NCBI GenBank assembly: GCA_963812605.1
Contig: CAWEWF010000014.1
Location: 704,001 to 768,000, forward strand
From: an uncultured Verrucomicrobiae bacterium
GTDB lineage: Bacteria > Verrucomicrobiota > Verrucomicrobiia > Palsa-1439
Direction: 5' to 3'
Length of the DNA: 64,000 nucleotides
Positions within the stretch are counted from its first letter, which is position 1; every line of letters starts with the position of its first letter. Shown piece after piece: positions 45,374 to 53,334 of this stretch. Below the pieces are notes generated by a model. It saw nothing but the letters and a program-made list of their open reading frames with translations, had not been told where the DNA came from and ran no database searches. Position numbers and translations under genes: made by a program.

Positions 45374-45402
45374 TTGACGAATGACCCTTGGGAAGTTAGC
45401 TT
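45374..45402 (+). promoter_or_regulatory. Sigma70-type promoter of the leader/tRNA array
   Basis: TTGACG-N17-TAGCTT with an A-rich tract upstream. Confidence 0.65.
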
Positions 45403-45424
45403 ACGCAAGTTTTTGAGGACAGAC

Positions 45425-45568
45425 ATGCGAACGCTAAGACCACAACGTAAATGCGCGACAGCGAGGATGCTTATATCCTCGTTGACCCGTAGTGGTCTGT
45501 TCCCGTCCTTTGTGTCATTAGGCCATTACGTCGCCAAAGATAACACGGGAGGGCCGGGAAGCAGGTAG
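45425..45568 (+). CDS. Putative attenuator leader peptide (47 aa)
   Basis: GAGGA RBS; MRTLRPQRKCATARMLISSLTRSGLFPSFVSLGHYVAKDNTGGPGSR*; last codons complementary to the terminator 5' arm. Confidence 0.65.
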   Translation: MRTLRPQRKCATARMLISSLTRSGLFPSFVSLGHYVAKDNTGGPGSR

Positions 45569-45591
45569 TTGTCACGTCCAGATGTTCCGTG

Positions 45592-45624
45592 AACCCTGCT
45601 TCCGAAAGGAACGCAGGGTTTTTT
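45592..45624 (+). terminator. Intrinsic terminator (attenuator)
   Basis: AACCCTGCTTCC-GAAA-GGAAcGCAGGGTT then T tract; competitor GGAAGCAGG at 45557-45565. Confidence 0.85.
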
Positions 45625-45688
45625 ATTGTCGCTATGCCGAAAAACGAAAGGAATCACAGTTAAAATGAAGATTTAAGGTGAAAAGAAT

Positions 45689-46047
45689 GCCGCGCCACCA
45701 GCGTCAACTGGCAGCGCGGCGGGATCGGTCACTACAACAGGACTCTTGTGAGGGCCACTGAGGAGCAACCTTGTACAAGGTTAGCCTCCTTGGTGCGAAG
45801 GTGTCAAGGGCTCGCCCTTTGCCCGCCGAACTGTCCTGCCGGAGTTGAACGTTTCCCACACCAATCAATAACAACGCCAAGGGCTTCATGGGAGGTGTGC
45901 CCGAAACACCAAAACGTTCCACCGAGAAATCCCGTGGCCACGCCAGCGTCAGGCTGGTGTGAAGGTGTTCGTTCTTTGTTGTGATCAGGGCAGGAACACA
46001 GGGCAACCAATCGAGTGCCGCATGAGGCGGCATTGTGTTCCTGCCCC
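45689..46047 (+). ncRNA. Unidentified structured RNA ahead of the tRNA array
   Basis: Nested stems CACTGAGGAG/CTCCTTGGTG, AACCTTGT/ACAAGGTT, GGGCAGGAACACA/TGTGTTCCTGCCC. Confidence 0.55.
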
Positions 46048-46057
46048 CATTTTCCGG

Positions 46058-46131
46058 GCGCTTGTGGTTTAGCAGCAGAACACCGCGTTGCCAACGCGGA
46101 GGTGCGGGTGCGACTCCCGCCGAGCGCTCCA
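46058..46131 (+). tRNA. tRNA-Gly(GCC)
   Basis: CCGCG-TTGCCAA-CGCGG; CCA; T-loop TGCGACT. Confidence 0.88.
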
Positions 46132-46142
46132 ATTCCAGTGCT

Positions 46143-46216
46143 ACGGCGTGCGCCAGTTCGCGCAGTTGAGTCTCCAAAACTCGGCGTGGTTGGGGCGGCA
46201 CCAACACGCCGTGCCA
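46143..46216 (+). tRNA. tRNA-Trp(CCA), degenerate D arm
   Basis: TGAGT-CTCCAAA-ACTCG; ACGGCGT/ACGCCGT; GCCA. Confidence 0.75.
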
Positions 46217-50931: not shown

Positions 50932-50935
50932 CCTC

Positions 50936-50975
50936 GGGAGCTTCCTGACCACGGTTGGGAAGCTCCCTTCTCTTT
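50936..50975 (+). terminator. Hairpin after Ro60 gene
   Basis: GGGAGCTTCC...GGAAGCTCCC followed by TTCTCTTT. Confidence 0.5.
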
Positions 50976-51063
50976 CCAGTAATTTGAAGCATCCGGCAAC
51001 GACAACCGAGCTGCGTCGTCTGTCATTACACAAATCAACCCGCTCGGAGAAAGGAGCCACATC

Positions 51064-51307
51064 GTGAGATTCAACATCCTGAAGAGACGCAGCACGAACG
51101 CCGATTCCGTCAACTTTGCCGGCGGGGAGGCATTTACCGAGTCGCCAAAGGTGGAACTGGCGGCGCTGATGTTGGGCGCAGGCAACCAGCTTGGTCTTGG
51201 GCAACCACCATTGACATTGGTTGCGTTTTCACTAATCCGCAATCGCGAAGTTCCTCGACTCGGACAAGACGGCGCTGCTGCGAGAAATCGAAGCGGTGGA
51301 GTTGTAA
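51064..51307 (+). pseudogene. Internally deleted second Ro60 copy
   Basis: Start MRFNILKRR..NFAGGEAFTESPKVELAALML and end KFLDSDKTALLREIEAVEL* match the termini of 49499-50931. Confidence 0.85.
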
Positions 51308-51380
51308 ACAAACCCGGTGGAGGAGTAGCTTGAAGGCGTGCTCCTCCATCCCATTGAATGATAGGAAAGGAAACACCAAC

Positions 51381-52550
51381 ATGAAGCCAGTAATCTTCGG
51401 TCAGCATGACGAGGCGACGATCCGGCAGATCGAAACCTGCCTGGCGGCGGGCGGCGAAAAGGCCGTGCTGTGCGCGGATGGCCACAAGGGCTACGCCCAA
51501 CCAATCGGCGGCGTGGTCGCCTACAAGGACAAGGTGTCGATCTCGGGTGTCGGTTTCGACATCGCCTGCGGCAACCTTGCCATCCGCACCGACGCCATGG
51601 AAGCCGACATCCAGCCAAAGATGGACGCGATCATGGACGACGTGGTGCGCCACATCTCGTTCGGCGTCGGCCGCACGAACAAGAACAGGGTTGACCATGA
51701 ACTGTTCGACGACGAAGCGTGGAACATTCGCGCGATTGGCCAACTGAAGCACCTGGCGCAGGAGCAGCTCGGCACGGTCGGCAGCGGCAACCATTATGTG
51801 GATGTCTTTGCCGATGAGGGTGGCGTGGTCTGGGTCGGCGTGCACTTCGGTTCGCGCGGGCTCGGTCACCGGTCGGCGACGCACTTCCTGAAGGTTGCGG
51901 GTGGAAAGGACGGCATGGATGTACCACCTACCGTTCTCGATCTGCGGGTTCAGGTCGGTCAGGATTACCTCGCGGCGATGAGGCTGGGCGGTCGTTACGC
52001 CTACGCCGGCCGCGAGTACGTCGCCCGTTTCGTCGTGCGTGAGATTCTCCAGGCGAACATCGTGGAAGAAGTTCACAACCACCACAACTTCGCCTGGGAA
52101 GAAGAACACTACGGCGAAAAGTTCTGGGTCGTGCGCAAGGGCGCTACGCCGGCGTTTCCCGGTCAAAAGGGATTCGTCGGCGGCAGCATGGGCGACGACG
52201 CCGTAATCATCGAGGGCATTGACACGGCAAGATCGCGCGAGGCCTTGTTCTCGACCGTCCACGGCGCTGGACGCGTCATGTCGCGCACGGCAGCCAAGGG
52301 CAAGTTCGAGAACGTCGGCGGAAAGCGTATCCGCCAACCCGGGCGAATCCGTCATGATGAAATGATGGCCTGGCTCAAGAACAAGGGCGTCGTCCTGCGA
52401 GGTGGCGACCTTGACGAAGCGCCCCAGGCCTATCGTCGCCTGACGGATGTACTCGCGGCACAGGGTCGCACGATTCGCGTTCTCCATACGCTCCGCCCGC
52501 TGGGCGTGGCCATGGCCGGACGAAACATCGTCGATCCCTACAAGGACTGA
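51381..52550 (+). CDS. rtcB: RtcB-family RNA ligase
   Basis: DGHKGY.QPIGG, VGFDIACG, GTVGSGNHY, HFGSRG, HNHHN, RKGAT, HGAGR, DEAP.AY. Confidence 0.95.
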   Translation: MKPVIFGQHDEATIRQIETCLAAGGEKAVLCADGHKGYAQPIGGVVAYKDKVSISGVGFDIACGNLAIRTDAMEADIQPKMDAIMDDVVRHISFGVGRTNKNRVDHELFDDEAWNIRAIGQLKHLAQEQLGTVGSGNHYVDVFADEGGVVWVGVHFGSRGLGHRSATHFLKVAGGKDGMDVPPTVLDLRVQVGQDYLAAMRLGGRYAYAGREYVARFVVREILQANIVEEVHNHHNFAWEEEHYGEKFWVVRKGATPAFPGQKGFVGGSMGDDAVIIEGIDTARSREALFSTVHGAGRVMSRTAAKGKFENVGGKRIRQPGRIRHDEMMAWLKNKGVVLRGGDLDEAPQAYRRLTDVLAAQGRTIRVLHTLRPLGVAMAGRNIVDPYKD

Positions 52551-52617
52551 AGGCAAGCTGCCCGCGGTTGGAGCGATGTCAGCCACATCCTGTGCATTGT
52601 TCCAACCTCCCCTTTTC

Positions 52618-52692
52618 GCTCCCATAGCTCAACAGACAGAGCCTTCCTCTCCTAAGGGAAAGATTTGGGTGCAACTCCTGATGGGAGCACCA
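52618..52692 (+). tRNA. tRNA-Arg(CCT), array-type T-loop
   Basis: TTCCT-CTCCTAA-GGGAA; GGTGCAACTCC; ACCA. Confidence 0.87.
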
Positions 52693-52746
52693 TTTATTTG
52701 GCGATCACAACAAATAGCGAACACCATCGAGGAACAGAGGAATGAT

Positions 52747-53334
52747 ATGAACGACATACTAAATAAAGCGACGGTATTGGTACTGAATCGCAACTGGCAG
52801 GCCATCAACGTGCGCACGCCGGCAGAAGCGTTTTGCCAGATGGCAATCAACGCGGCAACCGGCTTGGACATCGAGGGCGAGGATCGCATGGGTCCCGTCC
52901 CGTGGGATGGGTGGCTCAAGCTGCCGATTCGGCCCCACGATAACGCCGTCGGCACACCACGCGGACGTATTCGTGTGCCCACGGTCATCGTGTGCGCGAA
53001 CTACGCGTGGGTGCCCCAGAAGCGACCGAAGCTCTCCGCGCGGAACATCCGCGAGCGCGACGGTCACCGCTGCCAATACACCGGCAAAGTATTGCGCGCG
53101 GAAGAGGGCAGCATTGACCACGTCCTTCCCCGCTCACGCGGCGGGAAGACGACATGGGAGAACTGTGTCTTCGCCAGCAAGCAGATCAATACAAAGAAAG
53201 GCAATCGACTGCCCCAGGAAGCTGGGCTGCAACTCTTGGCGCGTCCCCGAGTACCGCGGGCGCTGCCGGTGACCCTGACCATTCGCAATGCCCACGGTAT
53301 TCGAGACTGGAAGCCCTTTCTGGGTGATTCATGA
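52747..53334 (+). CDS. HNH endonuclease
   Basis: VLVLNRNW, RDGHRCQYTG, IDHVLPRSRGGKTTWENCV...N.KKGN. Confidence 0.92.
   Translation: MNDILNKATVLVLNRNWQAINVRTPAEAFCQMAINAATGLDIEGEDRMGPVPWDGWLKLPIRPHDNAVGTPRGRIRVPTVIVCANYAWVPQKRPKLSARNIRERDGHRCQYTGKVLRAEEGSIDHVLPRSRGGKTTWENCVFASKQINTKKGNRLPQEAGLQLLARPRVPRALPVTLTIRNAHGIRDWKPFLGDS

Follow-up and report, generated by a model that had tools for sequence, protein, structure and literature searches.

This analysis concerned a transfer RNA (tRNA) operon in a 64,000-nucleotide stretch of DNA (the window; G000:C14:704001-768000) from contig CAWEWF010000014.1 of an uncultured Verrucomicrobiae bacterium of the lineage Palsa-1439, whose genome assembly (GCA_963812605.1, hereafter G000) comprises 4.17 Mb in 15 contigs and is 89.96% complete. 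The window carried at 45364-53334 a single co-oriented module consisting, in order, of a promoter, a leader open reading frame (ORF) with a terminator, a leader RNA, 32 tRNA genes, four Y-RNA-like genes, Ro60, RtcB, tRNA-Arg(CCT), and an HNH endonuclease. The module was best explained as an L-type tRNA operon acquired by horizontal gene transfer (HGT), in which a full tRNA set that could be aminoacylated has been fused to a Y RNA/Ro60/RtcB cassette and to an HNH gene travelling with such arrays, and whose expression would be gated by stalled ribosomes (probability of roughly 0.55). New aspects were an altered tRNA elbow extending over the whole array family, the built-in cassette, and a leader switch shared with an exporter gene. 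A preliminary description of the sequence had already recognized one co-oriented unit with these parts, which was confirmed and found to be conserved, with corrections concerning Ro60, a second Ro60 remnant, an insert, and tRNA units without CCA.

According to PMC8421152 (Santamaria-Gomez et al., 2021), L-arrays contain up to 43 genes, have spread by HGT, and are known from seven phyla, Verrucomicrobia and Planctomycetes among them. The paper also describes the Anabaena L-array as silent until impaired translation induces it, a gene for an HNH homing endonuclease conserved beside L-arrays with homing as the proposed means of spread, and rtcB genes located near the arrays of other cyanobacteria and co-regulated with them. 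The module is an array of this kind, being long, same-strand, and non-periodic with a patchy distribution indicative of HGT and an adjacent HNH gene of the all8564 family, and the concept of spare tRNAs combined with RtcB has already been published. The interpretation given in the preliminary description, a module that both replaces and repairs the tRNA pool when translation is attacked, was largely anticipated in print for L-arrays (PMC8421152) and was partly supported: the conserved unit, the attenuator anatomy, and the selection on the tRNAs spoke in its favor, while Ro60 and RtcB proved to be accessory and Ro60 is broken in this assembly.

The closest known counterpart was the trn operon of Anabaena sp. 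PCC 7120, which is likewise a long, non-periodic, and co-oriented array for most amino acids spread by HGT, its supernumerary character being probable here as well, with a homologous HNH gene beside it, linked or co-regulated rtcB, and the same proposed role under translation stress. Both arrays encode short class I-like tRNA-Leu and a Met tRNA with C1/U72. The two differ in that the HNH gene is upstream of the array in Anabaena and downstream here, and rtcB lies elsewhere in the Anabaena genome but inside the operon with Y RNAs and Ro60 in the window. Furthermore, Anabaena uses promoter direct repeats and a repressor (TrcR; PMC10272220) in contrast to the leader-ORF terminator and leader RNA found here. 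The locus would show cryptic tRNA arrays to be regulated in a second way, by a mechanism unlike that of the Anabaena repressor.

The tRNA genes of the module were as follows:
46058-49013, plus strand: array of 32 tRNA genes (2956 bp; ARAGORN, Rfam, and script)
Units 1-9, before the insert: Gly GCC, Trp, Ala, Tyr, Asp, Pro, Arg TCT, Asn, Ser TGA
46822-47075, plus strand: insert of 254 nt, in which a good Shine-Dalgarno (SD) sequence precedes a very basic ORF of 59 codons (46854-47033)
Units 10-18, after the insert: Ile GAT, Phe, Arg GCG, Thr CGT, His, Cys, Thr GGT, Gly TCC, Met (initiator-like)
Units 19-26: Met, Lys CTT, Thr TGT, Gln CTG, Leu TAG, Arg TCG, Leu TAA, Leu CAA
Units 27-32: Ser GCT, a class-II unit with TAT, Glu, Lys TTT, Gln TTG, Val TAC
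52618-52692, plus strand: tRNA-Arg(CCT) of the array type (T-loop TGCAACT, CCA encoded; repeat family D2)

ARAGORN at default settings detected 17 tRNAs in 46058-48934 plus Arg(CCT) at 52618, and Rfam retrieved 18 module tRNAs at the gathering score with a few more at E<=5. The relaxed search recommended in the preliminary description (ARAGORN -ps90) raised the count to 26 on the plus strand, while the full 32 emerged only from a script that placed a 7-bp acceptor stem before each CCA together with reading by eye, the script mis-registering the class-II Tyr and TAT units. This approach bore out the earlier count of 32 tandem tRNAs plus Arg(CCT) and the coverage of all 20 amino acids. The initiator-like Met was also verified (47756-47829), having a C1/U72 mismatch and the sole canonical T-loop. 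Acceptor stems formed 6-7 of 7 pairs in all 33 units, T-stems and anticodon stems formed 4-5 of 5 pairs in nearly all, and CCA followed 29 of the 33 (exceptions being Arg GCG, Cys, Leu TAA, and the class-II TAT unit). No tandem periodicity beyond shared tRNA motifs was found across the array, and its tRNAs were 48-71% identical to the housekeeping isoacceptors of G000.

Comparisons were made with 17 same-genus genomes including three array carriers (G003, G010, and G015), with two genomes from other families (G025, of the same order, and G026), and with a survey of HNH relatives limited to one genome per species, in which at least 497 relatives were found and the best 80 loci analyzed. The Arg(CCT) gene was located within the array in the three same-genus carriers, where the insert was missing such that Ser TGA was directly followed by Ile GAT; the insert was single copy in G000 and had no match in the 80 loci.

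The array tRNAs are under strong selection for structure and identity and are not decaying pseudogenes: 1142 of 1245 changed stem pairs still pair (895 by double change, 103 broken) and identity marks hold. The stem-pair counts derive from 297 comparisons of G000 units with same-anticodon homologues, which are not phylogenetically independent. Rules for tRNA identity elements derive from Escherichia coli work. The window units displayed marks that match their anticodons, namely G3:U70 in Ala, G-1 and C73 in His, U1:A72 and G73 in Gln, C1:G72 in Pro, and U73 in Gly and Cys. Among 863 array tRNAs tallied, the marks were G73 (79/86) and U1:A72 (78/86) for Gln, C1:G72 for Pro (32/32), G73 for Asp (20/20), U73 for Cys (40/41), and G3:U70 for Ala (22/27), and CCA was encoded in 800 of the 863. 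Judged by these marks, charging of the set is plausible.

The elbow of the same tRNAs was altered throughout the family. U55 was missing in 32 of the 33 window units, the exception being the initiator-like Met with TTC, and G occupied T-loop position 55 in 31 of the array's 32 units. The T-loops usually read TGCRANN, with AGC and GGC starts also present, and G55 was combined with the lack of a D-loop GG in 23 of 25 parsed units. The housekeeping tRNAs of G000 had the TTC start in 43 of 47, GG in 43 of 43 parsed, and U55 in 42 of 43. Across the 80 verrucomicrobial loci, only 14 of 881 array tRNAs started the T-loop with TTC; GG was absent from 691 of 819 parsed D-loops and was absent together with G55 in 684 of 819, compared to 0 of 43 for the housekeeping tRNAs. 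The TTC start was usual in the Anabaena array (20/24), the tRNA cluster of phage Tunturi_5 (15/18), and the mycobacterial plasmid pCBMA213_1 (30/32, the other two looking like register offsets). Array D-loops mostly ended in A-G-Y-A, and a simple reading would be that the G19:C56 pair is kept and the G18/U55 contact replaced by A/G. Cloverleaf stems, anticodon loop, CCA end, and aminoacylation identity marks are preserved alongside the altered elbow. No earlier description of G55 arrays occurred in the full-text literature searched or in the passages of PMC4758250 and PMC8421152 searched, supplements excluded. U55 and G18G19 rank with the least variable nucleotides of bacterial tRNAs, and a large natural family of complete tRNA sets that dropped them while keeping its charging and decoding marks raises the questions of what the elbow does and which factor has been evaded.

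Two kinds of unit had unusual shapes. The class-II unit with a long variable arm, anticodon TAT, and discriminator A but without CCA (window 48589-48676) had conserved counterparts in three other loci (L011 10114-10205, L012 6281-6372, and L013 6562-6653); AUA decoding by a tRNA of Leu or Tyr shape would be odd. The tRNA-Leu genes (window 48162-48478) were 74-78 nt and lacked a long variable arm, as in the Anabaena L-array (L028), with a median of 76 nt for 134 array Leu genes.

The second pillar of the explanation is the region before the array, with the following features:
45374-45402, plus strand: promoter-like site (-35 TTGACG at 45374-45379, 17-nt spacer, -10 TAGCTT at 45397-45402)
45425-45568, plus strand: leader ORF of 47 codons (SD GAGGA 6 nt upstream; stop 23-26 nt before the terminator)
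45556-45565, plus strand: antiterminator strand GGGAAGCAGG in the last leader-ORF codons, pairing with 45595-45603
45592-45625, plus strand: intrinsic terminator (11-bp bulged stem, GAAA loop, T-run)
45689-45720, plus strand: GC-rich hairpin 3' of the terminator, kept in array leaders and in the ABC-gene leader of the congener G016
45877-45982, plus strand: conserved array-leader RNA motif of ~105 nt, a candidate cis-regulatory RNA
45988-46057, plus strand: long hairpin followed by CCATTTTCC, directly 5' of tRNA 1

Homology to other arrays started at 45364, just 5' of TTGACG, and the block around the -35 was conserved in six of seven aligned leaders, the G025 stretch starting downstream of it. 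A consensus promoter scan did not list the site because its -10 is weak. In 10 of 11 homologous leaders, the ORF was open, fell in the same length class, and ended at the same stop. All insertions and deletions were in multiples of three. The terminator (-20.2 kcal/mol, z -4.07) was matched in stability by 0 of 200 shuffles and was invariant in six aligned leaders. When the transcript was folded from 45545 to 45616 it formed the antiterminator (-24.1 kcal/mol), while the full transcript formed the terminator, and folding of the G016 leader gave the same antiterminator helix. The downstream GC-rich hairpin was listed on the opposite strand by the hairpin scan, and the homologous stretch of G001 and G014 was judged by eye.

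The promoter, leader ORF, and terminator were also identified before a 637-648-aa ABC exporter gene (PF00005) in six congeners (G016, G012, G004, G001, G014, and G006), and no close orthologue of this gene was found in G000. A leader shared with an exporter gene points to ribosome-stall attenuation, and what appears conserved is the act of translation and the RNA helices rather than the peptide. The attenuator assigned in the preliminary description accordingly retained its anatomy (ORF, SD, terminator, and antiterminator), with codon-position data weighing on the other side as given below. The best-known analog is bmrB-bmrCD of Bacillus subtilis, which is reported to show ribosome-mediated transcription attenuation (PMC4191407). 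It similarly places a short leader ORF and terminator before an ABC exporter, the same kind of cassette as in the six congeners; it differs in having unrelated sequence and belonging to another phylum, while the leader described here also precedes, and would gate, a tRNA and RNA-repair operon by a mechanism proposed from folds alone. As an observation in its own right, the exporter leader loci (L019 4726-6991, L020, and L029-L032) are candidates for a drug-inducible efflux attenuator in Verrucomicrobiota.

Under the preferred explanation, read-through of the module is probably stall-dependent. Transcription would start at 45374-45402 and normally be halted at the terminator. A ribosome completing the leader ORF would cover 45556-45565 and keep it from pairing with the 5' arm of the terminator, while a ribosome stalled earlier in the leader by drugs, tRNA shortage, or tRNA damage would leave this strand free to form the antiterminator, letting RNA polymerase enter the array and pass a second RNA and hairpin checkpoint at 45877-46057. 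RNase P and 3' trimming would release the 33 tRNAs, most with encoded CCA, which would differ from the housekeeping pool at the elbow (G55, no G18G19) and might then serve translation to the benefit of the stressed cell, while tRNAs that had been cleaved would be joined again by RtcB. With such a leader, simple reporters could test whether spare tRNAs serve under translation stress.

The candidate checkpoint starts with the array-leader RNA motif, which an nhmmer search detected in 36 of 84 related loci; every match was on the strand of the array, and those whose position was checked preceded the tRNAs. The motif occurred once in the G000 genome, had ~55 invariant positions, and gave no Rfam match at E<=10. 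RNAalifold gave a weak consensus only, with 0-3 covarying pairs; covariation cannot support a fold because the motif hardly varies. Most survey arrays carried this motif without the leader-ORF element. In viral contigs, an exact-pattern scan returned no occurrence and nhmmer gave weaker matches in 2 of 40 viral loci. A GC-rich hairpin and T-run equivalent to that at 45988-46057 were found 0-10 nt before the first tRNA in most of 32 aligned loci and may function in processing or as a weak terminator following the first.

Downstream of the array, the module encoded a cassette for RNA surveillance and repair:
49022-49112, 49123-49258, 49259-49360, and 49379-49481, plus strand: four Y-RNA-like genes, recognized from repeat families and folds
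49499-50931, plus strand: Ro60 (TROVE and vWA_Ro60; Pfam), split into 49499-50341 and 50386-50931
50936-50967, plus strand: 14-bp hairpin with a T-rich tail, 3' of Ro60
51065-51307, plus strand: second Ro60 remnant (first ~38 and last ~20 codons, middle deleted)
51381-52550, plus strand: RtcB RNA ligase of 389 aa (Pfam RtcB, 2.5e-62)

The Y-like units shared a 5' motif and matching 3' strand (families D6, D11, and D13) and had folds made up of long terminal stems and branched interiors (z -1.95 to -3.22). Unit 2 contained a tRNA-like T-arm and D-arm and matched YrlA (RF02553) with 40.6 bits and E 1.3e-07, under the cut-off of 69 bits, while the others were Y-like by fold alone. Pieces homologous to the tRNA-like part of unit 2 occurred just 5' of Ro60 in at least six other loci compared. 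Relative to an intact 476-aa orthologue in L035 and L036, Ro60 had two 1-nt insertions near 50305 and 50343, ~38 nt apart, which would mark a pseudogene unless they stem from an assembly error. Contigs from four DNA runs of one study matched many array pieces with 0-10 differences, none of them covering 50152-51215. In this genome, decay of the Ro60 arm may be under way. The second remnant was 83% and 85% identical to 49500-49614 and 50871-50931, respectively (families D3 and D8). The Cys/His motifs of RtcB, the nucleotidyl-histidine motif HGAGR among them, could be aligned with those of Pyrococcus RtcB 4dwr, and its catalytic motifs are intact.

The Salmonella rsr-yrlBA-rtcBA RNA-repair operon, reportedly the subject of work by Chen et al. 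in 2013 and 2014 and by Hughes et al. in 2020, similarly has RtcB in a single transcription unit with a Ro60 orthologue and with tandem Y RNAs that contain a tRNA-like module. It differs from the window in that no RtcR or RtcA gene was adjacent here, the cassette lies inside a tRNA array, Ro60 is broken in the assembly, and there are four Y-like RNAs of which one resembles YrlA below the Rfam cut-off. The Ro60/RtcB part was missing from all three same-genus arrays and is accessory. Its fusion into many arrays elsewhere ties RNA surveillance and repair to tRNA supply beyond co-regulation.

Several observations weigh against the proposed stall-gated stress module. Leader-ORF substitutions numbered 623, 658, and 601 by codon position without third-position bias, codon differences comprised 209 synonymous versus 990 non-synonymous with a poorly conserved peptide, and conserved hairpins lie inside the ORF. 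The lack of third-position bias together with the hairpins means that the leader could act as a structured RNA and not via translation. The frame was shifted at the ORF end in one of the 11 leaders (G001), and the leader-ORF terminator motif was present in only 4 of the 80 survey loci, most arrays having no leader-peptide element. Ro60 is frameshifted and its paralogue deleted in this assembly, and tRNAs with G55 and no GG may not work on the ribosome. A search of sequencing runs listed no RNA run containing the stretch.

The last gene of the module (52747-53334, plus strand) encoded a 195-aa HNH endonuclease (Pfam HNH_4, HNH_5, and HNH) with a beta-rich N-terminal domain. It was 44% identical over 79 aa (E 3e-22) to the product of the HNH gene beside the Anabaena trn operon (all8564 family, pCC7120delta), and a PDB profile search placed its HNH half nearest to the stand-alone HNH 4h9d (E 7e-11) and to the HNH domains of IscB and Cas9. 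The structural model had a pLDDT of 57 overall, 63-89 in the N-terminal ~80-85 residues, and <50 in the HNH half. The best fold match of the N-terminal part was the PLMP domain of IsrB/IscB (residues 1-53, 46-48 aligned, rmsd 3.7-4.7), a weak one at Z 4.0-4.2 (VIA-align); no fold match exceeded Z 4.2 and Pfam found a PLMP/RRXRR domain in 0 of 30 HNH family members. IshB is a PLMP plus HNH protein of ~180 aa in the OMEGA/IscB lineage according to PMC10734217 and PMC11610941. Its similar size, the proximity of the HNH half to IscB/Cas9, and the PLMP match make IshB a possible relative, while the weak fold match, the lack of a Pfam PLMP domain, and the lack of a noted IS200/605 context (no dedicated test was made) set the window protein apart; the resemblance is a lead rather than a finding. 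HNH relatives on plasmids of Persicobacter, Acaryochloris, and Tsukamurella had no tRNA arrays beside the HNH gene. Mycobacterial tRNA arrays are reported to be marked by an HNH gene and GOLLD RNA (PMC9569102 and PMC5966550), and they too share mobile DNA with an HNH homologue and a conserved non-coding RNA. They differ from the module in the canonical T-loops of pCBMA213_1 and in GOLLD itself: neither GOLLD nor ROOL had an Rfam match in the window at the gathering score, nor at E<=5-10 in 45000-53600 and 45250-46070.

A tentative extension of the preferred explanation, which we consider unlikely, would see in the array an orthogonal tRNA pool. In a complete, chargeable set, the elbow contacts would have been replaced throughout except in the initiator, with G18G19 and U55 giving way to a single G preceded by A together with G55, rendering the tRNAs invisible or resistant to an elbow-reading factor such as a toxin, a phage enzyme, or a host quality-control or modification enzyme. 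The pool would be switched on by stalling, the IshB-like HNH protein may mobilize it, and the leader RNA would be the possible partner of this protein.

The distribution of the module identified it as a horizontally mobile island. Arrays were present in 3 of the 17 same-genus genomes, at differing loci, and the other 14 had no array-type match. The three carriers had the leader, ~26-29 detectable tRNAs, and the HNH gene in DNA 73-90% identical to the module but no Y RNA, Ro60, or RtcB, and their flanks differed (HipA, AbiEi, and ankyrin); the G010 array was interrupted by a DDE transposase of an inserted insertion sequence (IS). G025 encoded the leader RNA, array, Arg(CCT), and HNH, and G026 had the order array, intact Ro60, Rnl-type RNA ligase, tRNA-Phe, SUKH protein, HNH, and RtcB. 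The linkage of array, leader, and HNH therefore recurred in G003, G010, G015, and G025 and that of array, Ro60, RtcB, and HNH in G026, L035, and L036, so that the synteny search suggested earlier returned a recurrent association across verrucomicrobial loci with Ro60 and RtcB as accessory parts. As a separate observation, the G026 module (L015 2531-5665) has, between Ro60 and HNH, genes for a SUKH-1 protein of 603 aa and for the Rnl-type ligase (PF09414, PHA02142 OB fold), and so encodes another ligase in addition to RtcB.

Array counts used the 55 of the 80 survey loci with at least 5 kb of upstream sequence. At least five co-oriented tRNAs preceded the HNH gene in 49 of the 55 and at least ten in 41. 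The 49 arrays included co-oriented Ro60 in 19, an RtcB-like gene in 28, and both in 13. Of the RtcB-like proteins, 19 were at least 32% identical to the window RtcB and nine only 24-27%; a close RtcB lay upstream of HNH, as here, in three loci, and an RtcB 33-37% identical lay 0.3-4.5 kb downstream in 16.

In the relative G006, the MFS gene is ~200 bp from the homologue of window 33603-34371. This adjacency of the flanks implies that window 34492-53334 is a 19-kb variable region beside tRNA-Leu(TAA), and it answered the earlier concern about a chimeric contig. As to a second concern, location in a prophage, the module lies in this variable region and in no recognizable prophage. Scans of ~10 kb on the upstream side (to 34727), of the genes nearest downstream, and of four related flanks detected no integrase or phage gene, and no direct repeat indicative of att sites flanked the module or the 19-kb region.

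The alternative that survives best, while judged unlikely, is that the module is selfish or phage-derived cargo of large-phage origin, moved by the HNH enzyme and silenced by terminators, with the selection on its tRNAs acting in a phage stage and not for the host. Its differing sites in congeners, the variable region in the window, the IS in G010, the decay of Ro60, and the homing-endonuclease spread proposed in PMC8421152 are all consistent with this, as is an HNH homologue inside a tRNA cluster with RtcB in jumbo phage Tunturi_5. In IMG/VR, 40 contigs encoded HNH relatives and 12 of these had at least ten co-oriented tRNAs within <=10 kb on each side, four being of the G55 type. These four putative viral contigs (L147, L148, L151, and L152) were 29-275 kb with 55-65% G+C and 35-43 tRNAs, of which tRNA-Met was again the main exception; TTC was kept by three of four Met genes in L147 and L151 and also by Val(AAC), Ser(TGA), and Leu(TAA), but not by the L148 Met. 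Against a phage origin, no phage hallmark was identified in ten ORFs from L148, L151, and L152, whose matches were Ro-like RNA-binding, HNH, and Nudix proteins, and no phage gene was seen in the scanned surroundings of the module and its relatives. A leader of host type shared with a chromosomal ABC exporter gene speaks for domestication into host regulation, and the HNH relatives are very widespread in one phylum. As a whole, the G55 array family comprised at least 49 loci in Verrucomicrobiota as well as IMG/VR contigs reaching 275 kb. Independently of its origin, the G55-type IMG/VR arrays had an adjacent HNH relative, and L151 also carried a Ro-like gene.

It is improbable that the tRNAs are not mainly for decoding and instead act as toxin decoys or sponges, as clients of Ro60 and Y RNAs, or as aminoacyl donors outside the ribosome. 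The systematic loss of U55 and G18G19 would fit such roles, as would the embedding of Ro60 (with Y RNAs) in 19 of the 49 arrays, and the sponge idea was raised for the Anabaena array in PMC8421152. Set against this are the complete 20-amino-acid set, the initiator-like Met as the only unit with a canonical T-loop, and the fact that anticodon stems and loops are conserved along with the identity marks and CCA, which tRNAs used in decoding would be expected to show.

Outside the module, ARAGORN found 47 dispersed tRNAs, and Infernal (RF00005) found 65 genome-wide including 21 in the module; neither program found housekeeping Gly(UCC), Thr(UGU), or Arg(ACG) outside the array in the 89.96%-complete assembly, these anticodons being present in the array alone or nowhere, such that the array may be needed constitutively, a further point against a stress module, or the assembly may miss those genes. 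That the array is such a constitutive supply, for instance the sole source of Thr(UGU) and Gly(UCC), with hairpins that are processing sites and not switches, is nevertheless very improbable: the poor T-run of the hairpin before tRNA 1 would suit it, but at this completeness a few tRNA genes are expected to be absent, array-free congeners exist, and the first terminator is strong and invariant.

Returning to the surroundings of the stall-gated operon, the immediate neighbors scanned encode DUF5682, VWA, SWIM, an unknown ORF, and MFS. The earlier statement that no RtcR-type gene is adjacent held for these genes, which included neither RtcR nor RtcA (no genome-wide search for RtcR was made). The operon part at 42048-45363, from VWA to the unknown ORF, occurred in none of the 17 congeners. 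The stop of the HNH gene overlaps the end of the convergent MFS gene, and the rest of the 19-kb region (34492-45257) is filled by an operon encoding DUF4132 (1250 aa), a MoxR AAA protein, DUF5682, VWA (CoxE), SWIM, and the unknown protein.

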